A stretch of 62,870 nt of DNA, filler included. It is 4 parts of 4 records of this genome, joined end to end, with 100 filler letters (N's around TTAATTAATTAA, not from the genome) between each part and the next. Parts side by side here need not be neighbours in the genome. Positions count along the whole stretch, not along the records: positions 21,667 to 51,465 come from DRR378314_224; 3 more parts are not named here. One strand, given 5' to 3'. Each line of letters begins with the position of its first letter. Position 1 is the first letter of the stretch. The translations under genes and the position numbers were made by a program. Shown here piece after piece: positions 13,772 to 49,274 of this stretch. The notes under the pieces are model-generated. The model searched no databases, was not told where the DNA came from, and was given only the letters and a program-made list of their open reading frames with translations.

Positions 13772-14098
13772 TTATTTTAAAAACGAATCCATTCCAGGAA
13801 TGTTGGGCATTCCTTCCTTGGCGACTGCGGCCAATTCGGTCTCATTTATGGTGGTGGCCTTTTCTATAGCCTTGTTAAGGGTGAGGATCAAATAATCTTC
13901 CAGTTGTTCCTTGTCCTGTAAAAGACTATCGTCTATAGCAATGGATTTAATTGTTCTATTGGCCGTTATACTTACCTTCAGCAATTGATCAGGAGATTGC
14001 TCGTCAAGTATTACAGTATTCATTCTTTCTTTGGTGGCCTTTACTTTTTCTTGGGTTTCCTTTAATTTTCCCAACATGCCCATCATATCTCCAAACAT
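13772..14098 (-). CDS. ybaB: YbaB/EbfC nucleoid-associated protein
   Basis: 108 aa, MFGDMMGML..., EQLEDYL...[15 protein letters not shown] promoter element at 14126-14133. Confidence 0.88.
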
Positions 14099-14292
14099 AA
14101 TTATAGATTTAAAAAATTCTTAAGCCAAAATTACTAAAATGATCGGGATATATTGGAATTTAAGACTACAGTTATTCTTTGGGATACTTTGAGGGGGGGT
14201 GGATAATATTATAATGGATAAACAACACATTTAAACAGGTCGATTGCATTTAAATATTATTTTTGCGCTTTCTTATTAAACATACCACACTC

Positions 14293-16353
14293 ATGCAGCG
14301 GGAATTAAAAACACCAAGTGCTAAAAAGATTGAGAAGCAATTAATAAAGCACAATGATGTAAGGATCGATGATTACTATTGGCTGAACGAAAGGGAAAAT
14401 CCGGAAGTCATTGCTTTTTTGGAACAGGAAAATGCATACTACGAGGCAATGACGGCCCATACCAAGGAGCTTAAGGATAGCTTGTTCACAGAGATGAAGT
14501 CTAGGATAAAGGAAGATGATTCTTCCGTGCCCTATAAGTTTAATGGCTACTGGTATGCTACCAGATATGAGGTAGGAAAGGAGTACCCCATTTTTACCAG
14601 ACGTTTTGAAAAAGAGGATGCCGAAGAGGAAATAATGTTCAACTGCAACCATATGGCAGAGGGTTTGGATTATTTTAACCTAGGAGGCCTGTCCATTAGC
14701 CCCAATAATGAATTGGCGGCCTTTGGGGTGGATACTGTTTCCCGCAGGCAATACACCCTACAAATAAAAAATTTGCACACTCAGGAGATTTATGGGGATA
14801 AAATAGAGAACACTACCGGCAGCGCGGTATGGGCCAATGACAATAAGACCCTGTTCTACACCAAGAAAGATCCTGTTACCCTTAGGTCCAATAATATTTA
14901 CAGGCATATATTGGGAACATCTCCCGAGGAAGATGAACTGGTTTTTCACGAGGATGACGAAACCTTTACCACCTTTGTTTACAAAACCAAATCCAAAGAA
15001 TTTATAGTTATTGGGTCTTCCAGTACATTAACTACTGAATTTCAAATTCTAAGGGCGGATGACCCTAATGGAAAGTTTCATGTGTTTTCCAAAAGAGTTA
15101 GGGGCATGGAGTATTCCCTAACCCATTACGAAGACAATTTTTACATCCTAACCAATATGGAAGGGGCAACCAATTTTAAATTGATGACGACCCCCGAAGA
15201 TAAAACCGAATCTGAAAATTGGGTAGACTTTATTCCGCACAGGGAAGAAGTTTTGCTTGAGGATATTGAAATGTTCAATGAGTACTATGTTTTGTCCGAA
15301 CGCGAGAATGGTTTGAACAAGTTGAAGATTGTGCGATGGGATACCGGGGAAAGCTATTATTTGCCCTTTGACAATGAGACCTATACGGCCTATGTGGGTA
15401 CCAATCCGGATTTTGATACCGAAATTCTAAGATATGGATATAATTCCATGACAACACCCAGTTCCATAATAGATTTCAATATGAGGACAAGGGAAAAGGA
15501 AATAAAAAAGGAACAAGAGGTCTTGGGAGGGAAGTTCCATAAGGAAAACTATATTTCCGAACGAATTTGGGCACCAGCCAGGGATGGTAAAAAAGTTCCT
15601 ATTTCCTTGGTCTATCACAAAAGCACTAAACTGGACGGCAGCAGTCCGTTATTGCAATATGCCTATGGGTCTTATGGGCATACTATAGACCCCTATTTTT
15701 CCACGGTAAGGTTAAGCCTTTTGGACAGAGGTTTTGTTTATGCCATAGCCCATGTTAGGGGCGGGGAATACCTTGGCCGTAAATGGTATGAGGAAGGAAG
15801 ATTGCTGAATAAGATAAATACGTTTACCGATTTTATTGATTGTTCCAAATTTCTGATTGAAAAAAAGTTTACTAGTCCGGAACATCTCTATGCATCCGGA
15901 GGCTCGGCAGGCGGACTTTTAATGGGGGCCATAGTAAATCTATGCCCGGAAATTTATAACGGGGTAATTGCAGCTGTTCCTTTTGTAGATGTGCTTACGA
16001 CCATGTTGGATGATACCATTCCACTGACTACCGGAGAATATGATGAATGGGGCAATCCAAACGAAAAGGAATACTATGACTACATGAAATCGTATTCGCC
16101 ATATGACAATGTAACGCGACAATTGCAGCCAAATATGCTGGTTATTACTGGCTTTCACGATTCCCAAGTGCAATATTTTGAACCTGCCAAATGGGTTGCT
16201 AAACTTAGGGAGTACAAAATGGACAATAATTTATTGTTGTTCAATATTAATATGGATGCAGGTCATGGCGGTGCTTCAGGCCGATTTGAATCCTTAAAGG
16301 AGGTGGCTAAAGAATATGCATTTTTGTTAGATTTAGAGCATAAAATTCGATAA
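14293..16353 (+). CDS. ptrB: Oligopeptidase B (protease II, S9A)
   Basis: DDYYWL, HVRGG, GGSAGGLL nucleophile, HDSQV, AGHGGASGR; ATG at 14293 follows the TATTTTTG element (14258-14265). Confidence 0.94.
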   Translation: MQRELKTPSAKKIEKQLIKHNDVRIDDYYWLNERENPEVIAFLEQENAYYEAMTAHTKELKDSLFTEMKSRIKEDDSSVPYKFNGYWYATRYEVGKEYPIFTRRFEKEDAEEEIMFNCNHMAEGLDYFNLGGLSISPNNELAAFGVDTVSRRQYTLQIKNLHTQEIYGDKIENTTGSAVWANDNKTLFYTKKDPVTLRSNNIYRHILGTSPEEDELVFHEDDETFTTFVYKTKSKEFIVIGSSSTLTTEFQILRADDPNGKFHVFSKRVRGMEYSLTHYEDNFYILTNMEGATNFKLMTTPEDKTESENWVDFIPHREEVLLEDIEMFNEYYVLSERENGLNKLKIVRWDTGESYYLPFDNETYTAYVGTNPDFDTEILRYGYNSMTTPSSIIDFNMRTREKEIKKEQEVLGGKFHKENYISERIWAPARDGKKVPISLVYHKSTKLDGSSPLLQYAYGSYGHTIDPYFSTVRLSLLDRGFVYAIAHVRGGEYLGRKWYEEGRLLNKINTFTDFIDCSKFLIEKKFTSPEHLYASGGSAGGLLMGAIVNLCPEIYNGVIAAVPFVDVLTTMLDDTIPLTTGEYDEWGNPNEKEYYDYMKSYSPYDNVTRQLQPNMLVITGFHDSQVQYFEPAKWVAKLREYKMDNNLLLFNINMDAGHGGASGRFESLKEVAKEYAFLLDLEHKIR

Positions 16354-16435
16354 TCAAAAAAAAAGAGTAATTTTGTCCTATCAGTATTGACATAAATTAA
16401 AAGATGTCAATAAGTTCTAAACCTAGAAACTGTTT

Positions 16436-17476
16436 ATGGAACATAAGATAAACGCTTATAACAACCTCCTAGAACTTGTAGGAAACACCCCTTTAATCAA
16501 ACTAAATAAAATAGCTGCCAACTTAGAAGGTAATTTTTATGCTAAGGTGGAAGGTTTTAATCCAGGACATTCTTCAAAAGATCGTATTGCCCTTTATATT
16601 ATTGAAGAGGCGGAGCGAAGGGGAATTTTAAAGAAGGGGAGTACCATTATAGAAACCACTTCGGGGAATACGGGTTTTAGCATTGCCATGATCAGTATCA
16701 TTAAAGGTTACGAATGCATCTTGGCGGTAAGTTCAAAATCTTCCAAGGATAAAATAGACATGCTGAGGTCTATGGGGGCAAAGGTTTATGTATGCCCTGC
16801 ACACGTTAGCGCAGATGATCCAAGGTCTTATTACGAAGTAGCCAAAAGATTGCACGAGGAAACCGAGGGATCCATATATATCAATCAATATTTCAATGAT
16901 CTAAATTCCGAGGCCCATTACAAAAGTACGGGACCGGAAATTTGGAATCAGACCAACGGACATATTACTCATTTAGTAGCCTGTAGTGGCACGGGAGGTA
17001 CTATTTCCGGTACCGCTAAGTATCTGAAGGAACAAAATCCGAATATACGTGTTATAGGAGTGGATGCATATGGTTCCGTTCTTAAGAAATACCATGAAAC
17101 CGGTGAATTGGATACCAAGGAAATTTATCCGTACCGTATTGAAGGTTTGGGTAAAAACTTGATACCTACGGCCACCAACTTCAAGGTAATTGACGAATTT
17201 ATTAAGGTTACCGATGAAGAAAGTGCCCATACCGCTAGGGAGATATCCAGAACAGAAGGCCTTTTTGTAGGATACACAAGTGGCGCGGTAATGCAGGCCG
17301 TAAGGCAACTGGAGGAAATGGGCGAGTTTAATGAAGATAGCAATGTAGTGGTTATTTTTCCGGACCATGGTTCCAGGTATATGAGTAAAATATACAGTGA
17401 CCAGTGGATGGCCGACCAGGGATTCTTTGATAGTAAGAATGTTGAAGAACCACAAAAAATAGAATTTGTAAAGTAA
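16436..17476 (+). CDS. capA: CBS/cysteine-synthase-family PLP enzyme; probable cysteate synthase (CapA-like)
   Basis: [30 protein letters not shown]; no heme or CBS regulatory domains; directly upstream of the CapB-like gene. Family is secure, the specific function is inferred from context. Confidence 0.7.
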
Positions 17477-17498
17477 GGGTTATGCAAAATTTATGATT

Positions 17499-17532
17499 TA
17501 AAAAGCAACGGTTCATAAGTCGTTGCTTTTTA
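17499..17532. terminator. Intrinsic terminator between capA-like and capB-like genes
   Basis: AAAAGCAACG-N10-CGTTGCTTTT inverted repeat. Confidence 0.75.
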
Positions 17533-17544
17533 TGTATTAAATAA

Positions 17545-17577
17545 GTTGCATATGCGTATTAAAAATATATACTTTTG
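17545..17577 (+). promoter_or_regulatory. Bacteroidota promoter for the capB-like gene
   Basis: TTG (17546-48), 21-nt spacer, TACTTTTG (17570-77). Confidence 0.6.
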
Positions 17578-17600
17578 CACTAATAATCAACGTAGTCTAG

Positions 17601-18860
17601 ATGAGAGATTTATTTGACAGAATTATTGAGAATAAAGGTCCTTTAGGAAAATGGGCCTCACAAGCCGAGGGATATTTTGTATTTCCTAAATTGGAAGGTC
17701 CTATATCTAACAGGATGAAGTTTCAAGGAAAGGAAGTAATCACTTGGAGTATTAATGATTACTTGGGATTGGCCAATTTACCGGAAGTAAAGAAGGTAGA
17801 TGGCGAGGCAGCATTGGAATACGGTGCCGCTTTTCCTATGGGAGCAAGAATGATGAGTGGGCATACCGAATTCCACGAGCAATTGGAGCAGGAATTGGCT
17901 GCATTTGTTAAAAAAGAATCTGCTTATTTGTTGAACTTTGGGTACCAAGGGATGGTTTCTGCCATTGACGCTTTGGTTTCCAAGGATGATATTATTGTTT
18001 ACGATGTTGATGCACATGCCTGTATTATAGATGGCGTACGTTTGCATATGGGTAAGCGTTTTACCTTTAAGCACAATGACATTGAAAGTCTTGAGAAAAA
18101 CTTGGATCGGGCCGTTAAAATGGCAGAACAGACCGGAGGAGGTATTTTGGTAATATCCGAAGGTGTTTTTGGAATGCGCGGGGAACAGGGCAAGCTCAAG
18201 GAAATTGTTGCGCTTAAGAAAAAATATAAATTTAGATTATTCGTAGATGACGCGCATGGTTTTGGAACCTTGGGTGAAACCGGGGCAGGAGCAGGTGAGG
18301 AGCAGGGAATTCAGGATGATATAGATGTTTACTTTGCAACTTTTGCCAAATCTATGGCCGGAATCGGAGCTTTTTTGGCTGCGGACAAAGAGATCATAGA
18401 ATACCTTAAATACAACTTGCGATCTCAAATGTTCGCTAAATCATTACCAATGATTTATGTGAAAGGAGCACTTAAAAGGTTGGATATGCTACGCACCCAA
18501 CCAGAACTTAAGGCCAAACTTTGGGAGAATGTTAATGCATTGCAGAACGGACTAAAGGAAAGAGGTTTTGATATAGGTACTACCACTAGCTGTGTTACAC
18601 CGGTATATCTTAACGGTAGTATTCCAGAAGCCATGGCATTGGTAAAGGATTTAAGGGAGAATTTTGGTATTTTCTGTTCCATTGTAGTGTATCCGGTAAT
18701 TCCTAAGGGCCTGATTCTTTTAAGAATGATTCCAACGGCCACACATACCTTACAGGATGTATCCGAAACCTTGGAGGCCTTCTCTGTAATACGTGAGCGA
18801 TTACAGAATGGTACTTACAAAAGGTTGTCTGCGGCGGTAGCGGCAGCGATGGGAGAATAG
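17601..18860 (+). CDS. capB: Alpha-oxoamine synthase family; probable cysteate-fatty acyl-ACP/CoA transferase (CapB/SulA-like)
   Basis: NDYLGL, GARMMSG, H.CIIDG, FKHND, EGVFGMRG, DDAHGFG, TFAKS. The N-terminal GPLGKW...EGYFVFPKLEG resembles my recollection of Bacteroidota sulfonolipid acyltransferases more than SPT or BioF. Confidence 0.75.
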   Translation: MRDLFDRIIENKGPLGKWASQAEGYFVFPKLEGPISNRMKFQGKEVITWSINDYLGLANLPEVKKVDGEAALEYGAAFPMGARMMSGHTEFHEQLEQELAAFVKKESAYLLNFGYQGMVSAIDALVSKDDIIVYDVDAHACIIDGVRLHMGKRFTFKHNDIESLEKNLDRAVKMAEQTGGGILVISEGVFGMRGEQGKLKEIVALKKKYKFRLFVDDAHGFGTLGETGAGAGEEQGIQDDIDVYFATFAKSMAGIGAFLAADKEIIEYLKYNLRSQMFAKSLPMIYVKGALKRLDMLRTQPELKAKLWENVNALQNGLKERGFDIGTTTSCVTPVYLNGSIPEAMALVKDLRENFGIFCSIVVYPVIPKGLILLRMIPTATHTLQDVSETLEAFSVIRERLQNGTYKRLSAAVAAAMGE

Positions 18861-18881
18861 AACTATTTCAACTTACATAAG

Positions 18882-18916
18882 AAAAGCCAACTTAAATATT
18901 TAGGTTGGCTTTTTTT
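18882..18916. terminator. Bidirectional intrinsic terminator
   Basis: AAAAGCCAAC...GTTGGCTTTT between convergent genes. Confidence 0.8.
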
Positions 18917-18956
18917 AATTTTGGACGTTTTTTGAAATTTGGCCCATTGGGTCCGT

Positions 18957-20075
18957 TTAAAGTTCCTTTTTGTATGTCCTTCTTCTCTTGTATATTTTTG
19001 GGTCGAAATGTTTCCATAATTGGCGAATGGCCACGTTTTCCTCCAATTCCGGTGTCCTAACACATTTTTCTATTCCCTTGGCCTTAAAAGTCTTGTAATA
19101 CTCATTGAACATTACTGCTGTAACACCTTTATTCTGGTATTCCGGAAGTACCCCTATTAAATAAAATATAACCTCTTTGCTGTTCTTTTTCGCGCTGAGC
19201 AAATGAAATATGCCGAATGGGAATAATTTTCCCTTCGCTTTTTGCAAGGCCTTGGAAAATGAAGGCATTACTATTCCGAAAGCTATCAATTTGTCATCCT
19301 TATCCAATATAAATTTGATATACTCGGGATTGATAAAACTGATATATTTTTTCTTGAAATAATCCTTTTGAATATCGGTGATACGGACAAAAGAAGAGAG
19401 GGAGGAATAGGTCTCGTTAAAAAGGTCGAACATCTGATCTACCCAGGGCATTACTTCCTTGGTTTTAGTAAAGTTCAATTCCTTTACGCCATATCTTTTT
19501 CGGACCAGTTCGTTTGCCTTTTGAAAGAATTTGGGCTCTGCATTGCTAAAGGGGAATTTATTTTCCATGTATTCCTTTTCCTTTACAAACCCACAGCGTT
19601 CAAAATGATCAACATAGTAAGGATGGTTGTACCAGGTAATCATGGTGCCTATCTCATCAAACCCTTCGGTTAGGACACCTACTTTGTCCAAATTGGAAAA
19701 ACCTACAGGCCCTTCCATAAAGGACAACTTGTGTTCCTTTCCTATTTCGGACACCTTATTGAGCAGCGCCTCTGTAACTTCATAGTCATCCACAAAATCG
19801 AACCAACCAAAACGCATCTTTTTTACCTGCTGTTGATCCACTTCCAATCTATTGATAATGGCTACGACCCTACCTACAATTTTATTGTCCCTATAGGCCA
19901 GATAAAACCAGGCATCGGCATCCTTAAAAACAGGATTTTTACTTTTGTCAAAAGACTCCAGCTCGTCATTTATGATAGGAGGGACCCAGTAGGGGGAGCC
20001 CTTGTAAAGTGTAAAAGGAAATTTAACGAAATCCTTAAGTTCCGATTTTGTTTTTGCTTCTTTTAGAGTAACCAT
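18957..20075 (-). CDS. YghO-like GNAT-fold protein (family of bacterial ceramide synthase; often mis-annotated GTP cyclohydrolase or dATP pyrophosphohydrolase)
   Basis: FVKFPF.LY...PYWVPP, GRVVAIIN, RFGWFDF.DD, GP.GF, YN.PYY, and a C-terminal acyl-CoA motif LIGVLPEYQNKGV. Confidence 0.75.
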   Translation of the reverse strand: MVTLKEAKTKSELKDFVKFPFTLYKGSPYWVPPIINDELESFDKSKNPVFKDADAWFYLAYRDNKIVGRVVAIINRLEVDQQQVKKMRFGWFDFVDDYEVTEALLNKVSEIGKEHKLSFMEGPVGFSNLDKVGVLTEGFDEIGTMITWYNHPYYVDHFERCGFVKEKEYMENKFPFSNAEPKFFQKANELVRKRYGVKELNFTKTKEVMPWVDQMFDLFNETYSSLSSFVRITDIQKDYFKKKYISFINPEYIKFILDKDDKLIAFGIVMPSFSKALQKAKGKLFPFGIFHLLSAKKNSKEVIFYLIGVLPEYQNKGVTAVMFNEYYKTFKAKGIEKCVRTPELEENVAIRQLWKHFDPKIYKRRRTYKKEL

Positions 20076-20143
20076 ACCATGTTTCTTGTATGGTTCAATA
20101 TTAGCAATATTAATCTATAGGAAAAAGGACAAAAGTTATTTTG

Positions 20144-21220
20144 TTAGAAATCAATTTCAGAATCGTCCCTATTCTTTTCCTTTTTCTTTAGTTTCCGTAG
20201 TTGTTTTTTGGTAGGCCCCAAATCGATATCCTCTGCACCGGTACCTTTATTTTTTCCTTTTTTCTTTTTCTTCATGGCGTTCTTGTTGATGGGGCCGCCA
20301 TTTTCTCCCGCCTTTTGATCTTCAATGGCCTTCACCTTGTCCCTGTGCATATCTACCCTATAGGAGAATCCCATTGTGGCAAAGATCCTGCTGGGCGTAT
20401 TTTTAAAACTGGCGCCCAAGTTCATATCCACCTGCATATTTTCACCCAATAAATGTGCTACGCCTCCTCTAAGGAGCGCGTCCGAGTACCGATCACTTTT
20501 TATTCCTTGGTTTTCCACAAAGACACTCCATTTGGGATCTCTAAAGGCATGGGATAAGGATACCGTGTAGTTCCACTCAGGGAAATCAGTGCCCAATCTG
20601 TCATAGGCAATATTGGAAATAAGTACAAATCGGGGAGTAAGCCTGCTTTGGGTAGCAACCATTACCCTCGGGGAGACTGTGGGGTCGCCACGGTAAAAGG
20701 GATTGTCGCCCAATACAAAATTGGCACCTGCGTAGACCGATACTGCAGGGATTAGGTTTTTTAGCTTAAAACCATAGTTGGCCTTCCAGCTGTAAAGATT
20801 GGGTTTATTATTTTCGGGATTCTTAAAAGGATCGTAAACTAAAAATTTTAAACCTATTCTGTTTCTGGAAAAATCGGTGTTCTTAATTTCTACCCCTGTG
20901 TTGGTATATGTTTTATTTTGATTGTCGAAAGTGCCTTCATAATTCAGTTCCAAGGTTTCGAAAAGAAGGCCGTAACGCAATGACAGATCAGCTCCTAAAA
21001 TATTCGATTCGGTAGCTAACCTAGTGTGGTCCTGTTGTTCATAGCCAATGCCAAATTCGGCCTGTAAAACATTTGTACCTATAGCATAAGCGCTTACGGA
21101 AAGTCCAGGTCTGTTGGAGTTGATGACATCGGTGTACTGTGAAAAAGCGACCAATGGAATGGTGAAAATTCCAAATATTAGTATTTTCATAAGGCGTTTC
21201 TTGGAAACATTATACTCCAT
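20144..21220 (-). CDS. Outer-membrane beta-barrel 'transporter' (PF13557/COG4313-like)
   Basis: Signal peptide, INSNRPG.S.S......LQ.E.G motif, alternating beta-strand pattern; Lys-rich tail. Start may be 21190. Confidence 0.7.
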   Translation of the reverse strand: MEYNVSKKRLMKILIFGIFTIPLVAFSQYTDVINSNRPGLSVSAYAIGTNVLQAEFGIGYEQQDHTRLATESNILGADLSLRYGLLFETLELNYEGTFDNQNKTYTNTGVEIKNTDFSRNRIGLKFLVYDPFKNPENNKPNLYSWKANYGFKLKNLIPAVSVYAGANFVLGDNPFYRGDPTVSPRVMVATQSRLTPRFVLISNIAYDRLGTDFPEWNYTVSLSHAFRDPKWSVFVENQGIKSDRYSDALLRGGVAHLLGENMQVDMNLGASFKNTPSRIFATMGFSYRVDMHRDKVKAIEDQKAGENGGPINKNAMKKKKKGKNKGTGAEDIDLGPTKKQLRKLKKKEKNRDDSEIDF

Positions 21221-21308
21221 AGGTACTATTTTATTATTATTTTAAGACTTTTGCACTATTAATACAACGTTAGAATTGTACTTTTGATATAAAATTTGTC
21301 AACTAATT

Positions 21309-21566
21309 ATGGGTTTTTTAAAAACGATACTAATTGTACTCTTAGTATACTATTTGCTTAAAATTCTGGCGAAATGGTTTGCTCCTAAACTGTTTAGGTA
21401 TGCCGCAAAAAAGACCGAGGAACATTTTAAGGAACAGTTTGAAGGTTTTGCAGGTCAGCAACCACAGGAGGAAGAGCAAATTGGCGACGTTATAATTGAT
21501 AAAAAAACGACCAAGAAAAAGAACAGCTCAAAAAATGTTGGAGAATACATAGATTTTGAGGAAATT
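21309..21566 (+). CDS. DUF4834-like small membrane protein, truncated at contig end
   Basis: N-terminal TM helix, C-terminal GEYIDFEEI; TACTTTTG element at 21279-21286. Confidence 0.75.
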
Positions 21567-21666
21567 NNNNNNNNNNNNNNNNNNNNNNNNNNNNNNNNNN
21601 NNNNNNNNNNTTAATTAATTAANNNNNNNNNNNNNNNNNNNNNNNNNNNNNNNNNNNNNNNNNNNN
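21567..21666. other. Artificial contig spacer
   Basis: Same N44-TTAATTAATTAA-N44 linker. Confidence 0.99.
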
Positions 21667-22128
21667 TTTGGTGGCCTGACGCTGGGCGTCGTTGAAGTAG
21701 GCCGGAACGGTGATGACCGCCTGGGTTACTTCTTCGCTCAGGTAGCTCTCGGCGGTTTCTTTCATCTTGCCGAGGATGAAAGCGGAAATCTGGGAGGGAG
21801 AATAGGTCTCGGTCTTGGCTTCTACCCACGCATCACCATTGCCACCGTCAACGACGGCGAACGGCAGGTTTTTCTTGTCCTTGGCAAGGTCGCTATCGTC
21901 GAACCGACGACCGACGAGGCGCTTCACACCAAAAATGGTGTTGTCCGGATTGGTCACAGCCTGGCGTTTTGCCGGCTGGCCAACAAGGCGCTCTTCATCG
22001 GTGAAGGCGACGATGGAGGGGGTGGTGCGCGCACCTTCGGCGTTTTCAATCACGCGGGGCTGAGACCCATCCATGATGGCAACGCAGGAGTTGGTGGTAC
22101 CGAGGTCGATCCCGATCACTTTGCTCAT
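21667..22128 (-). CDS. dnaK: Chaperone DnaK, 5' part
   Basis: [35 protein letters not shown]. Confidence 0.98.
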
Positions 22129-40234: not shown

Positions 40235-41686
40235 ATGTTTCTGGGTCTTGACGTGGGGACGTCGGGGCTGCGCGCGTTGCTGGCCGATGAGGGTGGCAAT
40301 GTCATTGGCGTGGCGGATGCAGCTTATGGGGTCTCACACCCGCATACCGGGTGGAGCGAACAGGACCCGCAGGACTGGATCACCGCCTGCCAGACCGCGA
40401 TTGCAGCTCTGCGTGGGGACCATCCGGCCGAACTGGCCGCTCTGCGCGGCATTGGCCTGAGCGGCCACATGCATGGGGCAACCCTGCTGGATGCGGCGGG
40501 TAAGGTTCTGCGCCCCTGTATTTTATGGAACGATACGCGTTCGGCTGCCGAGGCAGCCCAGCTGGATGGCGCAGAAGGCGTGCGGGATTTGTCGGGGAAT
40601 ATCGTGTTTCCCGGCTTCACCGCGCCAAAACTGGCCTGGGTCGAGGCGCATGAGCCGGAGATTTTTGCTCAGGTCGCCAAGGTGCTGCTCCCCAAGGATT
40701 ATCTGCGCTACTGGCTGACCGGCACATATGTCTCTGACATGTCAGACAGCGCCGGGACGTCATGGCTTGATGTGGGCGCGCGGGATTGGTCGGACCAGCT
40801 GCTGGAAGTGTCCGGCATGCGCCGGGACCAGATGCCCGAACTGGTCGAAGGCTCTGCCGCCAGTGGCGATTTGCGTGACGCGCTTCGCCGCGAATGGGGC
40901 ATAGACGGTCCGGTGGTTATTGCAGGGGGTGGTGGCGACAATGCAGTTGCCGCCTGCGGGGCCGGGTGTTTCCGTGAGGGCGAGGGCTTTGTGAGCCTTG
41001 GCACCTCCGGCGTGCTCCTGGCCGCCAAATCTGCTTATAAACCTGATCCGGCCTCGGCCGTGCATACCTTCTGCCACGCGGTGCCTGATACGTGGTATCA
41101 GATGGGGGTGATCCTTGCGGCGACGGACTGTCTCAATTGGCTGTCGCGCACGCTTGGGCAGACCCCGGCAACGCTGGCGGGACTGCTGCCGGACCAGATC
41201 TCCGGACCCTCTTCGGTGACGTTCTTGCCCTATCTCTCTGGCGAGCGTACGCCGCATAACGATGCCAGCATCCGTGCCACGCTTGCAGGGCTTGATATTG
41301 GCGATGGCCCGGCAGAGCTGACACAGGCGGTGATGGAGGGCGTGGCCTTTGCGCTGCGCGATTGCCTTGAGGCGTTGAAAGGCACCGATACCAACCTTAC
41401 GCGCCTGCTTGCAGTGGGGGGCGGCACCCGGTCCCCTTATTGGGTGGAAACCCTCGCCACCGTTCTTGGCGTGTCCCTCGATATTCCCGATAAGGGCGAG
41501 TTTGGCGCGGCATTGGGCGCCGCCCGTCTGGCGATGACCGCCACCGGTGCTGACATTTCCTCCGTGATGACTGCACCGCCCATCGCCCACACCATTGATC
41601 CACGCCGCGATCTGACCGAGGCCTATGACGCCTCATACGCCCGGTATCGCGCGCTCTATCCCAACATGAAGGCACTGATGACATGA
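40235..41686 (+). CDS. xylB: Xylulokinase
   Basis: [47 protein letters not shown]. Confidence 0.95.
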
Positions 41687-42993
41687 CCACCGGCTTCTTT
41701 GGCGACGTTTCCAAAATCCAATATGAAGACGCAGACAGCACCAACCCGCTGGCCTTTCGCCACTACAACCCCGACGAGATGATCCTCGGCAAGCGGATGG
41801 AAGAGCATCTTCGCTTTGCCACCTGCTACTGGCACAACTTCGTGTGGCCGGGTGGCGATCCGTTTGGCGGCCAGACCTTTGACCGCCCATGGTTCAAGGA
41901 CACGATGGAGGCCGCCAAGCTCAAGGCTGATGTGGCGTTTGAGATGTTCACCCTGTTGCAGTCGCCCTACTACTGTTTCCACGATGCGGATGTGCGGCCG
42001 GAGGGGGCGAATTTTGCGGAAAACACCCGCAACCTGAATGAGATCGTCGAGTATTTCGCGCAAAAACAGGAAGAAACCGGCGTCAAACTGCTCTGGGGCA
42101 CCGCCAACCTGTTTTCCAACGCGCGGTTCATGTCGGGGGCTTCGACGAACCCGGACCCGGATGTCTTTGCCTTCTCGGCGGCGACCATCAAGACCTGCAT
42201 GGACGCGACACATCGTCTCGGCGGCGAAAACTACGTGCTCTGGGGCGGTCGTGAGGGCTATGAGACGCTGCTGAACACCGATCTTGCGCAAGAAGACCAG
42301 CAGATGGGCCGCATGCTTAACATGGTGGTCGAGTACAAGCACAAGATCGGCTTCAAGGGTGCGATCCTGGTGGAGCCGAAACCACAGGAGCCCTCCAAGC
42401 ACCAGTACGATTATGATGCGGCGACGGTCTATGGCTTCCTCAAGCGTCACGGGTTGGAAAACGAGGTCAAACTGAACCTCGAGCAGGGGCACGCGATCCT
42501 TGCGGGCCATTCGTTTGAGCATGAGATCGCCACCGCGCAGGCGCTGGGCGTCTTTGGCTCCATCGACATGAACCGCAACGATTATCAATCCGGTTGGGAC
42601 ACCGACCAGTTCCCGAACACCACCCCTGAGGTGGCGCTGGCCTATTATCACATCCTGAAACACGGAGGGTTCAGCACCGGCGGCACTAACTTCGATGCCA
42701 AACTGCGCCGCCAGTCCATCGACCCCGAAGATCTCTTGATGGCGCACATCGGTGGCATGGATATTTGCGCTCGTGGTTTTAAGGCCGCTGTCGCGATGGT
42801 CGAGGACGGCACATTGGATCAGTTCGTCACCGACCGCTACGCTGGTTGGCAGGGCGCGAGCGCGCAGGATATGCTGAACGGAAAGCTGTCCCTTGAGAGC
42901 ATAGCGGAAAAGGTTGAGGCCGAGGACATAAACCCCAGGCCGCGGTCCGGCCGCCAGGAGTATCTGGAGAATGTCGTCAATCGGTTCGTTTGA
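41683..42993 (+). CDS. xylA: Xylose isomerase (class II)
   Basis: [35 protein letters not shown]. Confidence 0.98.
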
Positions 42994-44007
42994 ATGAGTA
43001 TGGCGCAGATCGTCAATCACGGCCTTCACCAAGGTCATATACTGAAGGAGGTCTGTCTGCGAAGTGACAGGCTCAGCCTCAGTCTGTTGAACTTCGGTGC
43101 GGTGACGCGCGATCTGCGCCTGCATGACCAAGGCGAAGACCGATCTCTTGTGCTCGGCTTTCGCAACCCTGCGGACTACTTGACCAATCCCGGATACATG
43201 GGGGTGATCGCGGGGCGCGTCGCGGGCCGGATCAAGAATGCCCGCTTTGCGCTTGACGAGCAGATGGTGCGGTTGGCCGAAAACGAAGGGGGCAACCAGC
43301 TTCATGGTGGTCCCTCTGGGCTGTCTCATGTGCTGTGGGGAATCGAGCCGCTGACGTCTACCAGCGCGCGTCTCACCTATCACTCACCCGAAGGGGAAAA
43401 CGGCTATCCGGGTGCAGTAGATTTCACTGTCACCGTTACGCTTGACGAGTTTTCGGTAGAATACGAGATGATCGCATCCGTCAGCCAGCCAACCCCGATC
43501 AGCCTTGCACAGCATAGCTACTACAATTTGTCGGGTGGTCAGCAGGCAATCTGGGATCATCGCTTGCAGGTTGATGCCACAGGCTATCTCGTGCTGGACG
43601 ATACCAATGTGCCGAACGGCACAATCGCTGACCTGTCCGATACCGGTTTTGACTTTCGTCTTGGGCGCAGTTTTGGAGAGCTGGACCCCGAACACCAGGG
43701 ATGTGATATCAACCTTGTCTTCGACACAGACCGAACGCAGGCGCTCCCAGTGGCAAAGCTAACTGCGCCTGATGGCTTGCAAATGACGGTGACGACTGAT
43801 CAGCCCGGCGCTCAGATTTATACAGCTGGTGGTTTGCCGACACAGCCCGAGGGGCATTCAGGGCAAATACTGGGCCCCGCCATGGGGGTCTGCTTTGAAC
43901 CACAGGGCTTTCCAAACGCGGTAAACCAGCCAGATTTCCCGTCGGTGATCGTGTCGCCAGATGTGCCGTATGTTCAAAAGTTGCGTCTGGATTTCGGATG
44001 GGTCTGA
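42994..44007 (+). CDS. galM: Aldose 1-epimerase (mutarotase)
   Basis: GRVAGRI, LHGG, GYPG, HSYYNL, CFEPQ.FP. Confidence 0.93.
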   Translation: MSMAQIVNHGLHQGHILKEVCLRSDRLSLSLLNFGAVTRDLRLHDQGEDRSLVLGFRNPADYLTNPGYMGVIAGRVAGRIKNARFALDEQMVRLAENEGGNQLHGGPSGLSHVLWGIEPLTSTSARLTYHSPEGENGYPGAVDFTVTVTLDEFSVEYEMIASVSQPTPISLAQHSYYNLSGGQQAIWDHRLQVDATGYLVLDDTNVPNGTIADLSDTGFDFRLGRSFGELDPEHQGCDINLVFDTDRTQALPVAKLTAPDGLQMTVTTDQPGAQIYTAGGLPTQPEGHSGQILGPAMGVCFEPQGFPNAVNQPDFPSVIVSPDVPYVQKLRLDFGWV

Positions 44008-45314
44008 GGGCGCTTGTGATCTGTGCTGGTGTTCTGGTCGTCTCTGCGGTTCGCGCTGATGAGCGGCCAGATCTCGGCCCGCGGCCAGTCTTCCCTGCCG
44101 TCGATATGGCCGCAGTCGAGCTGGGGCAGCTGCTTTTTTATGATCCGGTTCTGTCGGGAAACCGCAATATCGCATGCTCTACATGCCATCATCCGAAATT
44201 CGGCACGGGGGATGGTGTTGCGCTTGGGCTTGGTGAGGGCGGCATTGGCCTCGGCCCGGATCGTACGCCCGACCCCCTGAATATACCCGAACAACGCATT
44301 CCGCGGAATGCGCCGGGTCTTTGGAACCTCGGTGCGCCGGAATTCACCGTGATGTTCCATGATGGTAGACTGGAAGACGATCCTGCGTTTCCCAATGGCA
44401 TTCGCACTCCCTTGGGCGAGGACATGCTTTTCGGATTTGACGACGCCCTTGCGGCGCAAGCCATGTTCCCGGTGCTCTCGGCGGATGAAATGGCAGGCCA
44501 CTATTCGGAGAATGATGTGGCGCAGGCGGTGCGGTTGGGGCAGCTCTCCACGCCGGGTGGGGCTTGGGACCTGATTGCGGCGCGGGTCGAGGCCATACCG
44601 GAATACCGGACGCGTTTCGACACGGTCCTGGCAGAGGGGGAGGCGATCACCTTTGCCGATATCGCCAATGTCCTTGCCGATTTCATCCGCTTCGAATGGC
44701 GCGCGGATATGAGTGCCTTTGATGCGTATATGTTGCAGCAGGGTGAACTGCTGCCCGATGCGCAGAGCGGCATGAAGCTGTTCTATGGCAAGGCGGGCTG
44801 CAGTCAGTGCCATTCCGGCTGGTTGCAGACAGATCACGATTTTCACGCTCTTGCAGTGCCTCAGTTGGGGCCGGGCAAGGCCGCACGTTTCGAAGCTCGC
44901 AACCGCGATGAGGGGCGTTTACGGGTGACCGGCGCAGCGGAGGATGCCTATGCCTTTCGTACGCCGTCGTTGCGCAATGTCAGCCTGACAGCGCCCTATG
45001 GACATTCCGGCGCGTTCGCGACGCTGGAGGCGATGGTTGAGCATCACTTGGCGCCCGAGGCCTCGCTGGAGAGTTTCGATATTGCGTCCGTTGTCTTGCC
45101 GCCGTTGGAGGGCGAGGACGACTGGCGCGTTCATCGCGCAGCGGCAGAGCGCGAGGCAGTACTTCGGGCGGTGGATCTGACGCCACAGCCTCTGTCTCCA
45201 GCCGAAGTGGACGATATCGTGGCGTTTTTGCGAGCGCTGACAGATGAGGACGCCGCAAAAGGTCGGCTGGGCGTCCCGGAGAGTGTGCCCAGTGGCTTGC
45301 CTGTGGACCGTTAG
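43998..45314 (+). CDS. Di-heme cytochrome c peroxidase/MauG-superfamily protein
   Basis: Signal peptide, LG.LLFYD..LS, CSTCH and CSQCH, RNAP.LWN, FRTPSLRNV..TAPYGH. Confidence 0.92.
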   Translation: MGLRALVICAGVLVVSAVRADERPDLGPRPVFPAVDMAAVELGQLLFYDPVLSGNRNIACSTCHHPKFGTGDGVALGLGEGGIGLGPDRTPDPLNIPEQRIPRNAPGLWNLGAPEFTVMFHDGRLEDDPAFPNGIRTPLGEDMLFGFDDALAAQAMFPVLSADEMAGHYSENDVAQAVRLGQLSTPGGAWDLIAARVEAIPEYRTRFDTVLAEGEAITFADIANVLADFIRFEWRADMSAFDAYMLQQGELLPDAQSGMKLFYGKAGCSQCHSGWLQTDHDFHALAVPQLGPGKAARFEARNRDEGRLRVTGAAEDAYAFRTPSLRNVSLTAPYGHSGAFATLEAMVEHHLAPEASLESFDIASVVLPPLEGEDDWRVHRAAAEREAVLRAVDLTPQPLSPAEVDDIVAFLRALTDEDAAKGRLGVPESVPSGLPVDR

Positions 45315-46858
45315 GGGCGCTTGTCTTGCGGAGACAGGGTGATGTGCTGATTGGCGTGAACCGCCCGCCAGTCGCTCAGCGTACCATCCGGCCAAGTGAC
45401 ACGCAGATCAACGGTGTTGGCCTGGCCAAGGCCGAAGTGTAGATCCCCCAAATCCCCGCCCGCATGCCCGCCGCCAACAGTGATCTCGCGCGTGAGGGTC
45501 CGGTCTTGGGTTTTGACTTCGACAAACGCACCAATGGCGTCTGGGTTGGGGGCGGCTGCCCGCAGGCGTAGCAGCAGCCAGTTGCCGTCCAGGTCACTGG
45601 TGTTCTCCCACACTTGCATCTGGGCGCGGCGATTGACGACTGCGATGTCCAGCAACCCGTCACGGTTCAGGTCCACCAGAGCGCCGCCCCTACCGCGATG
45701 CAGGCTGGCAACTCCGGCTGTGTCACCGACTTCTGAAAACGTACCGTCCACATTCTGCAGCATCAGGTTGTTGGGATCTTTCTGCGCGGCGTCGGGCATC
45801 TGTTCGACATTGCCTTTGGTCACAAAAATATCGTCACGCCCATCATTGTTCACATCGCCAAAAGCGGCGTGCCAGCCGGTTGACGGGCGCCCATCTCCGC
45901 CAGTGTAGGGCCGATGGGCGGTGGTGCCGAAGCCGTAGGTCACGTCTTCCCAGACCGGACCCTTCGCTTTGGCGTCACGCAGCTGAAATTTCTGATCCCC
46001 CATCGAGGTCAGGTAGACATCCTGAAACCCGTCACCGTTTATGTCACGCGAGGCGATGCCCATGCCCCATAGAGCATATGGCCTCCAGCCTTCGTCGGCC
46101 GTGTACAGCCGCGGCGTGTCTTCCATTGCCCACATCTGTTCCTGCCCACCGCGCACGTAATAGTGGCGGTCATTGGACAGGCGCAGATCTGCGTGACCGG
46201 TTCGGTTCCAGTCGCTGAACAGGACCGACAACGCGCAGTAACCCGGAGCTAGGGGTTGCCTGGCTTGGTATGTTTCGCCGTCCGGGCGATACAGAAGGGT
46301 GTCGTCGCAGGTGCCAAACGGGCCGTTGGGGTCCTGGCGGTCCACGTAGGTGCCGAAGGCGAGCGTCGGCAGAGTATTGTCGCCCTCCCAGGTTGCGGAG
46401 AAGCCAGTGGTCCAGTGATCATCACTCACGAAACCGAGGTGATCGAAGGGCTGGAACTGGCATTCGCCGGAGCCTTGCATCAGGAGGTCCGGTCCCGCCC
46501 GCATGATCGCAAGGTCGGTCCACCCGTCACCGTCAATATCTAGCGGGTAGGCTCCGGTGACGCCGGTCAGGGCCAGGGATGCCGGTGTTTTCGCTGTAAA
46601 TGCCACGGACGCGCCATTGGCGAGGGTGGTGTTCTGAAATAGCTGCGCTGTGTTTTCGCCGCCGGCAGCATAAAGTTCTGGCAGGCCATCGCCGTTGCAG
46701 TCAAAGACCGCAAGGCCGCCCCCAACATAGTGCTCCCAGCCGCCGCCATATATGTGTTCGCTCATCGCGACCGGCGTGAAGCTTGGGGTCTGCGTATCGG
46801 CATTCGCCGCATCAGCACATATGATCGCAGTTAGGGCAATCCAGCTACGCGGCAGCAT
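45311..46858 (-). CDS. CRTAC1-family protein (FG-GAP/VCBS propeller + ASPIC/UnbV domain)
   Basis: Signal peptide; repeats D.NGDG.PE, DIDGDGWTD, DINGDGFQD, DVNNDGRDD, DLNRDGLLD; C-terminal AIGA.V ... LHFGLG ... V.WPDG. Confidence 0.9.
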   Translation of the reverse strand: MLPRSWIALTAIICADAANADTQTPSFTPVAMSEHIYGGGWEHYVGGGLAVFDCNGDGLPELYAAGGENTAQLFQNTTLANGASVAFTAKTPASLALTGVTGAYPLDIDGDGWTDLAIMRAGPDLLMQGSGECQFQPFDHLGFVSDDHWTTGFSATWEGDNTLPTLAFGTYVDRQDPNGPFGTCDDTLLYRPDGETYQARQPLAPGYCALSVLFSDWNRTGHADLRLSNDRHYYVRGGQEQMWAMEDTPRLYTADEGWRPYALWGMGIASRDINGDGFQDVYLTSMGDQKFQLRDAKAKGPVWEDVTYGFGTTAHRPYTGGDGRPSTGWHAAFGDVNNDGRDDIFVTKGNVEQMPDAAQKDPNNLMLQNVDGTFSEVGDTAGVASLHRGRGGALVDLNRDGLLDIAVVNRRAQMQVWENTSDLDGNWLLLRLRAAAPNPDAIGAFVEVKTQDRTLTREITVGGGHAGGDLGDLHFGLGQANTVDLRVTWPDGTLSDWRAVHANQHITLSPQDKRP

Positions 46859-48059
46859 TGGCAAGCTCCTTCACGGTGCGCGCCGTGACTTCCTCGATTC
46901 CATAGGCCGCGGCGCCCTTGGCCCACATCAGATCGCCCCAGTCATGCACGATGACCTCGGGCAAGGGCGCATCGACCTGCACCACCCATTGGCGCATCTC
47001 ACCAATCACTTTGCCGGAATAAAGGTGGTCAAAGGACAGTCGCGCACCAGCCAGAATGATCTTGGTGGGGTCGAATATATTGACAACATTCGCCAATCCC
47101 ATGGCGAACATGCGCCGTGCCCTGTCGAGGATGGACAGCGCCATCGCGTCGCCCTTCTCTGCGGCCTGAAAAAGCGAGGCCAAGGTGCGGTGTCGTTCGC
47201 TGCCGCTGGAGATATTGGCCTCTCGCAACAATGCGTAGTCGCCCACATAGGCCTCCAGACAGCCGCGCTGGCCGCATTGGCATAAAGCGCCTTCCAGGTG
47301 GACCTTCGTATGACCAAACTCCGCGCCGCATCCACGTGTGCCGCGATAGATTTTCCCGTCGATTACGATACCCATGCCGACGCCATGCTCGATGGTGATG
47401 ACGATGAAGTTGTCGCAGGTGCGCCCTTCACCGAACAGATGTTCGGCCTTGGCCACAAGATTTGCATCATTGTCGAGGAAGACCGGGCAGGGCAGCTCCC
47501 TGGCGATTGCCTCACCAAAGGGGACATTGCGCTCCTCCAGCGAGGAGGACCAATAGATGAAGCTGCGCTCCGCATCGATCATCCCCGCAAGGCCAAGCCC
47601 AACGCCAGACAGATCGTCAATCGTAAATCCGCCCTTTTGACACGTCAGCTCCAGCGCGCGGCGGATTTGCGAACATAGGACAGGCACCGGCATGCAGCCC
47701 TGTGCAAGCGGCATCTCATGGCTCGCCAGTTCCTCGCCCACAAAGTCTGTAATCACGGTGGAAATCACATGGTGAGACACCTTGAGGCCGGCGATGAGAT
47801 GCGCGCCGCCGCGGATTTTCAGCGCGACGCGTGGGCGCCCGCGACGGGCTTCGGACGAGCTCTCGGGGGCAACCTCTTCGATCAGGTCTGCAGCCAGAAG
47901 CTCTGCGGTGATCGCCGTAACCGTAGCAGGACTTACGCCCGTGGCCTTGGCAATGTCGATGCGGGCAATGCTCTCGGCCGCACGGATCACATCCAGTATC
48001 TGCTGACGCCCGCTTTCGCGCTGATCGCCGCTTGGCGACAGCCGTCCTGATCGTGCCAA
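46845..48059 (-). CDS. xylR: ROK-family transcriptional repressor (XylR-like)
   Basis: N-terminal HTH (ARIDIA..TGVSPATVT), GRP linker, NDAN, EFGH, CQCGQRGCLEAY. Confidence 0.92.
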   Translation of the reverse strand: MARSGRLSPSGDQRESGRQQILDVIRAAESIARIDIAKATGVSPATVTAITAELLAADLIEEVAPESSSEARRGRPRVALKIRGGAHLIAGLKVSHHVISTVITDFVGEELASHEMPLAQGCMPVPVLCSQIRRALELTCQKGGFTIDDLSGVGLGLAGMIDAERSFIYWSSSLEERNVPFGEAIARELPCPVFLDNDANLVAKAEHLFGEGRTCDNFIVITIEHGVGMGIVIDGKIYRGTRGCGAEFGHTKVHLEGALCQCGQRGCLEAYVGDYALLREANISSGSERHRTLASLFQAAEKGDAMALSILDRARRMFAMGLANVVNIFDPTKIILAGARLSFDHLYSGKVIGEMRQWVVQVDAPLPEVIVHDWGDLMWAKGAAAYGIEEVTARTVKELANAAA

Positions 48060-48179: not shown

Positions 48180-48245
48180 TATTGCTACACATGAATCACC
48201 GTGCAGGTCAGCAAACGAATGGGCCGCACGCCAAGGGAGGAAAAT

Positions 48246-49274
48246 ATGAAATTCTTGAACGGACTTTCCGTTATCGCACTGAGTGCATTTGCAGCATCCT
48301 CGGCCTTTGCCGCGGATCTGACCGTCGGCGTAAGCTGGTCGAACTTTCAGGAAGAACGCTGGAAGACCGACGAAGCAGCCATCGTGGGCGCATTGGACGA
48401 AGCCGGGGCTGAGTATATCTCTGCCGACGCGCAATCCTCCTCTGCCAAGCAGCTTTCTGACATCGAAAGCCTGATCGCACAGGGTGTGGATGCGCTGATC
48501 ATCCTCGCGCAGGACGCCCAAGCCATCGGTCCGGCGGTTCAAGCCGCAGCGGATGAAGGCATTCCGGTGGTCGCCTATGACCGCCTGATCGAAGACAATC
48601 GCGCCTTCTACCTGACCTTTGACAATGTCGAAGTAGGTCGCATGCAGGCGCGTGCCGTGTTCGAAGCGATGCCCAAGGGCAACTACGTGATGATCAAAGG
48701 CTCTCCCACCGACCCCAACGCCGATTTCCTGCGTGGCGGTCAGCAGGAGGTCATCCAGGCCGCAGTCGACTCCGGTGACATCAATATCGTCGCGGAGGCC
48801 TACACTGATGGCTGGCTGCCCGCGAACGCGCAGCGCAACATGGAGCAGATCCTGACCGCCAATGACAACAACGTCGACGCGGTTGTGGCCTCCAACGACG
48901 GGACCGCCGGTGGTGTTGTCGCCGCGCTGACCGCGCAGGGCATGGAAGGCATCCCGGTCTCCGGCCAGGATGGCGACCACGCCGCACTGAACCGTGTCGC
49001 CAAGGGCACCCAGACCGTTTCCGTCTGGAAAGACGCCCGTGACCTCGGCGCGGCAGCGGGCGAGATCGCGGTGGCCATGGCAAGCGGCACCGCGATGGAA
49101 GAGATCGACGGCGCGACCTCCTGGACCTCTCCGGCGGGCACCACCATGACCGCGAAGTTCCTGGCGCCGATGCCGGTGACCCAGGACAACCTCTCCGCCG
49201 TCGTGGACGCGGGCTGGATCACCCAGGAAGCGCTCTGCCAAGGTGTCGAAAGCGGCCCTGCACCCTGTAACTGA
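48246..49274 (+). CDS. xylF: D-xylose ABC transporter substrate-binding protein
   Basis: EERWKTD, AYDRLI, FDN.EVG, G.PTDPNA, NDGTAGG, SGQD; RBS GGGAGG. Confidence 0.93.
   Translation: MKFLNGLSVIALSAFAASSAFAADLTVGVSWSNFQEERWKTDEAAIVGALDEAGAEYISADAQSSSAKQLSDIESLIAQGVDALIILAQDAQAIGPAVQAAADEGIPVVAYDRLIEDNRAFYLTFDNVEVGRMQARAVFEAMPKGNYVMIKGSPTDPNADFLRGGQQEVIQAAVDSGDINIVAEAYTDGWLPANAQRNMEQILTANDNNVDAVVASNDGTAGGVVAALTAQGMEGIPVSGQDGDHAALNRVAKGTQTVSVWKDARDLGAAAGEIAVAMASGTAMEEIDGATSWTSPAGTTMTAKFLAPMPVTQDNLSAVVDAGWITQEALCQGVESGPAPCN

Follow-up and report, generated by a model that had tools for sequence, protein, structure and literature searches.

A CcP/MauG-family di-haem protein with a predicted bis-histidine second haem, encoded beside a CRTAC1-type propeller gene in a xylose locus

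A gene for a di-haem protein of the CCP_MauG superfamily lies in a 62,870-nucleotide (nt) stretch of DNA, called the window here, which joins four parts of one genome, and it converges on a gene for a CRTAC1-family propeller protein:

43998..45314, + strand: di-haem CCP_MauG-superfamily gene, an open reading frame (ORF) of 438 amino acids (aa) whose product is predicted to be exported
45311..46864, - strand: CRTAC1-family FG-GAP/UnbV_ASPIC propeller gene, 517 aa, convergent; Pfam FG-GAP_3, FG-GAP and UnbV_ASPIC; predicted partner

The di-haem protein appears, from its sequence, to be periplasmic and of the CcP/MauG fold, and to belong with neither the His/Met peroxidases nor the His/Tyr enzymes of MauG type. 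Histidines at both ligand positions (His272 and His350) indicate that its second haem is bis-His. We propose, at about an even chance, a periplasmic haem-propeller enzyme to which it contributes the haem subunit, with the N-terminal haem open and catalytic, the bis-His haem acting as a relay, and a link to xylose.

Di-haem enzymes of the CcP/MauG kind serve as a model system for electron and hole transfer over long distances; the choice between peroxidase and bis-Fe(IV) chemistry is regarded as being switched by the bridging Trp and by the haem 2 axial ligand. Here, a large natural clade has His at the ligand site and a sub-clade also has His at the Trp site, apparently as in the gamma subunit of hydrazine synthase (HZS gamma), and the organisms with this pair of changes are ordinary marine heterotrophs, open to cultivation and manipulation. 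Gene order, more than 100 fusions and a complex model link the clade to a CRTAC1-type propeller, and it is tied as well to sugar-uptake operons; handles are gained on the role of bis-His di-haem enzymes and on CRTAC1/ASPIC biochemistry. Precedents for bis-His ligation have already been published (RoxA and HZS gamma). What is new is the placement in a xylose locus, the convergent propeller gene, the single-chain fusions, the complex model and a sister subclade that lacks the propeller. The initial annotation, made from the window alone, missed the xylose regulon and the CRTAC1-like propeller.

Results and Discussion

Haem ligands and the inter-haem position

The di-haem protein scores 108.4 bits on PF03150 (CCP_MauG; cut-off 25.6) and carries two CxxCH motifs, one per domain (C60-H64 and C268-H272). 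Eighty loci were retrieved by a search with an alignment, A1; all are close orthologues, taken at species level from GTDB representative genomes (59-79% identity). Because region 97-192 stayed unaligned in a single-sequence search of the PDB, a family alignment of 134 sequences, A2, was built and its profile was searched against PDB sequences. The features on which the argument turns are:

43998..44057, + strand: predicted Sec signal peptide, residues 1-20, MGLRALVICAGVLVVSAVRA followed by DE, by inspection of the sequence
44175..44189, + strand: haem 1 motif C60-S-T-C63-H64, N-terminal and presumed catalytic; C60, C63 and H64 invariant in A1
44235..44237, + strand: Glu80, opposite the distal switch His71 of P. 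aeruginosa CcP in the alignment to 1eb7
44358..44360, + strand: His121 in FHDGR (120-124), the inter-haem Trp position by profile alignment
44457..44489, + strand: distal-pocket set Q154, P158 and E164 in QAMFPVLSADE (154-164)
44799..44813, + strand: haem 2 motif C268-S-Q-C271-H272, invariant in A2
44994..45005, + strand: P333-Y-G-H336, the 'MauG motif' PYxH, within TAPYGH (331-336); T331 and P333 are Ca-site residues
45042..45047, + strand: His349-His350; His350 is the sixth-ligand position of haem 2, aligned with Met in 2c1u and Tyr in 6e1c

The translation also holds RN at 103-104 and EHH at 348-350, and a script confirmed H at 121, 336 and 350 and M at 346. In the A2 profile, the FWDGR of 1nml, 2c1u and 1eb7 (peroxidases of P. 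aeruginosa, Paracoccus and P. nautica) aligns with the family's F-[W/H]-DGR. In 1eb7 chain numbering, W94 falls at the Trp position of FHDGR, N79 opposite N104 and H71 opposite E80. We take W94, H71, N79 and M275 of the P. aeruginosa enzyme to be its bridging Trp, switch ligand, Ca ligand and haem ligand. The alignment is gapless from PYxH onward and sets the second His of the 'rhH' string on the Met of 'KIM' in 2c1u and on the Tyr of 'DIY' in 6e1c; that of 1eb7 stops at I274, one residue short of the Met275 position.

H121, H350, H64, H272, H336, Q154, P158 and E164 are each present in 80 of 80 orthologues, and H349 in 79; the conservation of H121 and H350 appears, on this alignment, to be more than chance. 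Thus the two hallmarks of a canonical bacterial CcP (bCcP) looked for here are both replaced: the inter-haem Trp of FWDGR reads His throughout, and the Met on the C-terminal haem gives way to His350. The distal Gln/Pro/Glu set of haem 1 and the Ca-site residues are retained. The position of the switch histidine of reductively activated bCcPs is acidic here, being Asp in 47 orthologues, Glu in 33 and never His. The initial annotation had read a His for the Trp in FHDGR, a His at the axial-ligand position 14 residues past His336, and intact QAMFPVLSADE, RN and TAP sets, and had called for H121 and H350 to be followed through homologues; all of this was borne out.

An ordinary His/Met bCcP in which Met346 ligates haem 2 was among the outcomes that the initial annotation named as fatal to its proposal. 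Met346 does sit four residues ahead of His350 on the same helix, but of the 80 orthologues only 15 have Met at 346, against 56 with Val (Ile 5, Ala 2, Thr 2), which eliminates it as the ligand, while His350 is invariant and aligned with the ligands of known structures. We give this alternative hardly any credence.

Predicted fold

An AlphaFold2 (AF2) model built on A2 (pLDDT 95.2, pTM 0.92) has the two-domain di-haem fold, with a Foldseek probability of 1.00 to MbnH, bCcPs and MauG; a first model, made from 27 sequences, reached a pLDDT of 63.5 and was dropped. Matches to these three fall at E values of 1e-19 to 1e-12, the best being MbnH (PDB 6e1c, 8.1e-19); the Y294H variant of MauG (3orv) is among them, and YhjA and BthA are also matched. 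Active or mixed-valence structures fit the model better (TMt 0.79 for 3o5c and 1iqc, 0.76 for 2vhd) than oxidised closed forms (0.65-0.67 for 1eb7, 1nml and 1rz5/1rz6). The signal-peptide region is modelled as a helix (2-16) of lower pLDDT. Cys9 was considered as a lipoprotein site and rejected by inspection: it has Ile at -1, lies only eight residues in and is unconserved in A1. The closest database protein, 98% identical and from a Tritonibacter sp., is named cytochrome-c peroxidase.

A large family with His at the ligand position

An exhaustive HMMER search of 1.84 billion cluster representatives matched 12025 proteins at E<=0.001, 5704 at E<=1e-10 and 684 at E<=1e-30. Among the best 150 representatives, position 350 is H in 100, Y in 27, K in 3, M in 3, E in 2 and A in 1, with a gap in 14. 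Its exchange among His, Tyr, Lys and Met is the behaviour expected of an axial-ligand position. Position 121 in the same set is W in 70, H in 53, F in 4, A, G and L in 3 each and V in 2, with others besides, and the commonest 121/350 combinations are H/H (41), W/H (40) and W/Y (23). Position 346 is V in 47, A in 34, I in 20 and M in 12, and the distal Q, P and E are found in 135, 142 and 147.

A FastTree phylogeny of the query and the 123 representatives with more than 84% coverage (27 were left out), midpoint-rooted and carrying neither support values nor an outgroup, gathers nearly every His121 sequence into one half, where His350 accompanies each of them; in the Trp121 half, position 350 varies among H, Y, K, M and E. 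A bis-His haem 2 thus appears from the sequences to be the rule in a large, unstudied branch of the CcP/MauG superfamily, and the additional Trp-to-His change seems to mark one clade. The sequence similarity network of the superfamily in the available portion of PMC6405878 includes uncharacterised clusters.

Named models fit the protein poorly. The best NCBIfam score is for TIGR03981 (His-Xaa-Ser (HxS) system-associated MauG-like protein), at 257 bits over a nearly full-length alignment and below the cut-off of 340; HxS or radical-SAM genes, however, were absent from the neighbourhood of the query gene, and the available part of the HXS paper has 0 occurrences of 'MauG'. The MbnH model TIGR04039 (123.8 bits, cut-off 362.85), the MauG equivalog TIGR03791 (111.5, cut-off 443.85) and the HZS gamma model NF052341 (18, cut-off 625) are further from being reached. 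The initial annotation's central proposal, a bis-His subclass that is neither a standard peroxidase nor MauG, is supported at sequence level by these scores, by the His at the ligand position and its exchange with other ligand-capable residues, and by the variability of position 346; different redox chemistry would be expected to follow. Its description of the enzyme as atypical holds in part: a His/His protein is unlike the CcP/MauG enzymes that have been studied, but it is no isolated oddity, His350 being the majority in the family of 684 representatives.

In three relatives there are 3-5 PF03150 genes per genome. We considered whether the strongest paralogues are canonical His/Met bCcPs and rejected this, as the two other types seen carry Tyr at +14 ('...AHY' in L082, '...VFY' in L085) and are thus His/Tyr. 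The other CCP_MauG genes examined in these three relatives included no His/Met bCcP. The two paralogues lie at L082 1342-2352 (+) and L085 961-2112 (-); one reaches 299.4 of the 443.85 bits required by the MauG equivalog, and for the other the top model is MbnH, at 159 bits (cut-off 362.85).

The propeller as neighbour and as fusion

The partner gene is assigned to the CRTAC1 family by Pfam scores that all exceed their cut-offs (PF13517 88.1, PF01839 63.7 and PF07593 63.6 bits), with Atlas clusters scoring the assignment at near certainty. Its only solved relative is human CRTAC1 (9etn), matched at 1.8e-14, and it holds many nearly invariant Trp, Tyr, His and Cys residues.

The propeller gene is convergent and directly downstream in 65 of the 77 loci with at least 1600 nt of downstream sequence, and in locus L076 it lies about 0.7 kb further on. 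All five genomes checked among those without the adjacent gene carry a 65-77% identical copy elsewhere, in four of the five just beyond the retrieved flank of the same xyl locus. The locus of Tritonibacter mobilis is split (L060 7371-8921 (-); L093), with the propeller, ROK and xylF genes on another contig and a PLD-like gene and a Na/H exchanger following the di-haem gene. In Phaeobacter sp. B1627 the genome search found one TAG inside the propeller match (G003:C125:131500-133008 (-)), which is at odds with the tblastn range of the same gene (L001 7311-8822), where there is no stop.

The two proteins are also found as single chains. Four of nine long representatives scanned combine PF03150, FG-GAP and UnbV_ASPIC, in both domain orders; these come from Anaerolineae, Caldilineales and Ardenticatenaceae. 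In a wider search for long homologues (768-2190 aa, 120 listed at E<=1e-20, read from precomputed Pfam columns), FG-GAP families are joined to PF03150 in 102 of the 120, mostly from Chloroflexota, and 101 of these also have UnbV_ASPIC. Position 350 in the 102 propeller fusions is His in 99, Met in 2, Gln in 1 and Tyr in 0, and three of them (P0293, P0403 and P0404) have His121. As neighbour or as fusion, the propeller is thus a partner of the bis-His type across two phyla. The other 18 long forms include nine with Tyr350, among them all the PA14+CBM_4_9 and beta-helix/NosD fusions. Beyond the propeller, the family's fusions bring in PA14+CBM_4_9, dockerin/cohesin and Big_1 modules.

Two sorts of long protein stand apart. 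P0367-P0392 (1340-1480 aa) are triple-length PF03150 + FG-GAP + UnbV_ASPIC fusions with a further N-terminal region; their source names read 'cytochrome c peroxidase/glucose/arabinose dehydrogenase' or 'ScyD/ScyE family', and one has an NHL repeat match. P0294 (890 aa) joins a His121/His350 di-haem domain, 48% identical to the query, to flavin-monooxygenase and FAD/NAD(P)-binding Pfam families, and this flavin fusion could, from its domain content, be a built-in electron source.

A literature search that covered sources outside subscription journals and supplements found no description of this di-haem family or of its CRTAC1-like pairing beyond a passing note in PMC12758564.

A predicted complex

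Residues 28-438 of the haem protein with two haems were folded together with residues 23-517 of the propeller. The three runs gave ipSAE values of 0.71, 0.72 and 0.70, against 0.01, 0.18 and 0.00 for controls, with a partner pLDDT of at least 89 and at least 90% of contacts common to the runs. In the calibration, in which no ligands rode along, the mark was attained by 51 of 78 solved complexes and by 2 of 108 mismatched pairs. The contacts involve 138-140, 142, 157, 160-162, 169-170, 176, 178-185, 295, 297-301 and 308-312 of the haem protein, which place the predicted interface on the haem-1 distal helix and a C-domain loop, and 43, 180-183, 235-238, 288-290, 310-327 and 353-361 of the propeller. 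In 63 orthologues, the interface residues of the propeller show higher conservation than its other residues (0.88 vs 0.71), as do those of the haem side within the clade (0.81 vs 0.74).

A physical link of this kind, backed by adjacency, fusions and the complex model, is also what a maturase of the MauG/MbnH type would call for, in which H2O2 drives the installation of a cross-link, quinone or kynurenine-type cofactor on the propeller, the latter being the real enzyme. MbnH acts on a partner protein, MbnP. MauG likewise acts on a partner protein, according to the available portion of PMC6405878, and the propeller's many nearly invariant Trp, Tyr, His and Cys residues also count in favour of this reading. 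Against this, haem 2 has a His rather than a Tyr, and in BthA the substitutions Y463H/M lose the bis-Fe(IV) signature (PMC6405878, same portion). Stable 1:1 fusions, of which there are at least 100, are easier to reconcile with a lasting complex than with a maturase that acts once; the contacts are predicted on the distal side of haem 1 and not by haem 2; and a sister subclade (below) has no propeller at all. We regard a maturase as rather unlikely.

The xylose locus

The genes around the pair in the window are those of a xylose regulon:

40235..41686, + strand: xylB, xylulokinase; TIGR01312 552.4 bits, cut-off 380.25
41683..42993, + strand: xylA, xylose isomerase; TIGR02630 677.2 bits, cut-off 533.25
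42994..44007, + strand: aldose 1-epimerase; PF01263, 4.3e-60
46845..48059, - strand: ROK-family regulator, upstream of the propeller gene; Pfam ROK and HTH, below the NagC and Mlc cut-offs
48201..49274, + strand: xylF, D-xylose ABC substrate-binding protein; TIGR02634 469.5 bits, cut-off 389.55

A sugar ABC permease is also among the neighbours. The start of the di-haem gene overlaps the epimerase stop by 10 nt (43998-44007), the convergent di-haem and propeller genes overlap by 4 nt (45311-45314), and the ROK and propeller ORFs share 20 nt (46845-46864) if the TTG start is real. No mau or tryptophan tryptophylquinone (TTQ) genes are found within about 6 kb of the di-haem gene, in agreement with the initial annotation; the cluster context of MauG is thus absent there.

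The arrangement recurs among the orthologues. Some xyl gene is present in 77 of the 80 loci, and xylB, xylA or the epimerase gene lies directly upstream in the same direction in 66 of the 78 with at least 1500 nt of upstream sequence. The sources are Rhodobacterales, Devosiaceae, Ahrensia, Cohaesibacteraceae, Rhodobiaceae and other Hyphomicrobiales records.

A sister subclade without the propeller

Of 201 genomes sampled evenly from the class, four gave a match at E<=1e-80, three of them with new proteins whose identity is 46-47% by tblastn and 47-49% in the sample search. His121 and His350 are present in all three and in a second copy from Phaeobacter sp. B1627. TRAP transporter genes directly precede the di-haem gene in three of the four sister loci (dctQMP in L099 and L100, dctM-dctP in L101):

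L099 8509-10311, - strand: sister locus with TRAP
L100 8246-9970, + strand: sister locus with TRAP
L101 8318-10129, + strand: sister locus with TRAP

L100 and L101 are flanked by genes for a PfkB kinase, a DeoC/LacD aldolase, GFO/IDH/MocA oxidoreductases, an aldose epimerase and an aldehyde dehydrogenase, and L099 by a ROK regulator and a sugar ABC system; the surroundings of the fourth locus, L102, are different. Judged from gene content, the theme that recurs across the loci appears to be periplasmic solute uptake and sugar catabolism.

Since the subclade lacks the propeller, the haem protein can work without it. This, with the retained Gln/Pro/Glu pocket and Ca-site residues and the lack of a His/Met bCcP among the other CCP_MauG genes examined in the three relatives, favours a stand-alone periplasmic peroxidase for H2O2 defence, with the propeller and sugar operons merely co-inherited. 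We consider such a peroxidase distinctly unlikely. A bis-His haem 2 would be a poor acceptor from high-potential cytochrome c or cupredoxin donors; the family is found repeatedly inside two different kinds of sugar-uptake or catabolic operon; and its propeller, CBM4_9/PA14, dockerin/cohesin and Big_1 fusions point to a specific substrate.

Several observations weigh against the haem-propeller enzyme that we propose. A search with this propeller as the query found no CRTAC1 homologue in any of the three new sister-subclade genomes at E<=1e-5. The propeller interface is less conserved than the rest in the four Chloroflexota fusions (0.03-0.19 vs 0.27-0.31), as is the haem-side interface towards propeller-fused forms (0.26 vs 0.44). 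The complex run was made without alignments of the A1/A2 type and with haems, unlike its calibration, and its pass may in part be memory of HZS or MauG-preMADH complexes. The xyl synteny among orthologues that are 59-79% identical may be largely inherited, and the counts over the 80 loci are not independent events, as the orthologues are related. Finally, the neighbouring H349 could ligate haem 2 in place of H350; either way, haem 2 would be bis-His. The haem-side interface also agrees poorly with the partner-less sister subclade (0.17-0.30 vs 0.53-0.54 for the rest). In a control, propeller-fused forms (0.26 vs 0.44) and other long forms (0.22 vs 0.39) showed the same drop, so the sister-subclade comparison does not discriminate and lends no support.

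Comparison with known systems

Among canonical bCcPs (1eb7/2vhd) the likeness extends to the two CxxCH motifs, the Ca-site Asn and Thr/Pro, the distal pocket and the fold. The bCcP Met275, Trp94 and His71 switch correspond, however, to His350, His121 and Glu80, and there are two family-specific insertions, of about 17 residues before RIPRN and about 25 after FHDGR. With MauG, which acts with a partner protein, it shares the fold (Foldseek E ~2e-17 to 5e-17, TMt 0.67-0.69) and the Gln/Pro/Glu spacing, but MauG has a His/Tyr haem 2 and Trp93 where the query has His350 and His121. The natural state of the query is thus the engineered Y294H change of MauG (PDB 3orv), a variant reportedly unable to form bis-Fe(IV) or to make TTQ. 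MbnH (6e1c) aligns with the query without gaps from PYxH to the ligand position; it differs in having Tyr there, and the query gene has no MbnP-type neighbour.

BthA (6nx0) is, like the query, a family member that lacks the inter-haem Trp; it has a Ser at that site, and its Y463H/M variants lose the 960-nm bis-Fe(IV) feature and keep H2O2-dependent ABTS turnover (PMC6405878, available portion). BthA nevertheless has His/Tyr ligation and a stable bis-Fe(IV) state and is more distant (7.4e-35 by profile, 3.2e-14 by Foldseek).

HZS gamma (5c2v chain C) offers a set of apparent parallels. By the text of the HZS papers it has a CcP/MauG fold, a bis-His second haem, a His at the Trp site and docking to propeller subunits, and the alignments made here suggest the corresponding ligand and Trp-site residues in the query. 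In the accessible part of PMC12607021, the surface bis-His haem gamma-II is the proposed point of electron entry and HZS beta is a propeller. According to the part available of PMC12758564, the Trp of CcP/MauG corresponds to gamma-His144, and HZS-like clusters outside anammox bacteria lie next to an FG-GAP 'CRTAC1 family' gene and to ABC binding proteins. The two proteins are nevertheless very distant (5c2v_C is matched at 2e-13, over the C-domain only). Haem gamma-I of HZS has a third Cys link and reduces NO, whereas the query keeps a peroxide-type Gln/Pro/Glu pocket and has neither an HZS alpha subunit nor an anammox context.

RoxA offers a different precedent. It has a bis-His C-terminal haem (H394/H641) and an O2-binding N-terminal haem (PMC6311187, available portion), and RoxA/RoxB, on the text at hand, share with the query a CcP-related di-haem architecture, the PYxH 'MauG motif' and a five-coordinate N-haem active site. 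An oxygenase or peroxygenase acting on a carbohydrate-derived substrate would follow this pattern, with the chemistry at haem 1, the bis-His haem as an accessory and the propeller or CBM holding the substrate; the sugar loci and the PA14+CBM_4_9, dockerin/cohesin and Big_1 fusions of the family fit such a role. RoxA, however, is of ~70 kDa with long loop insertions, and its H641 lies 124 residues past the motif His (14 in the query), as given in the same portion. It binds O2 and cleaves polyisoprene, and no sequence match to the query was seen; nor is there significant similarity to RoxA-specific regions, PF21419 being reached weakly by one distant representative. The CBM-fused members, moreover, carry Tyr350 and not His. 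This oxygenase reading seems to us very improbable.

Proposed mechanism and role

In the haem-propeller enzyme that we favour, haem 1 would be a permanently open, five-coordinate site for a small oxidant, most likely H2O2 because the peroxide-handling residues are kept. Haem 2 would serve as a low-potential electron relay, as in HZS gamma, rather than as a bis-Fe(IV) partner. The other subunit would be the neighbouring Ca-binding CRTAC1-type propeller, docked over the haem-1 distal helix and the C-domain loop. Given that expression is proposed to be tied to the xylose regulon, the physiological substrate would probably be linked to sugar acquisition.

A bolder and quite unlikely extension is that the pair is a new kind of heme enzyme, periplasmic or extracellular, that uses H2O2 or O2 to transform a carbohydrate or a derived substrate before uptake. 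This would explain the xylose and TRAP/sugar-acid operons, the Chloroflexota fusions and the CBM4_9/PA14, dockerin/cohesin and Ig-like modules of sister clades. If true, it would give the CRTAC1/ASPIC family, whose human member has a solved structure, its first biochemical role, and the pair would be a haem-based counterpart of oxidative polysaccharide and sugar processing.

Another feature of the window

Elsewhere in the window, positions 6001-22000 form a block of about 16 kb at 38.5-41% G+C, against 55-63% on either side. It encodes a trio of transglutaminase-like, Alpha-E and circularly permuted ATP-grasp proteins, several PLP enzymes, a prolyl oligopeptidase, a GNAT protein and a MetA-pathway outer-membrane protein, and could be a foreign island or an assembly chimera.

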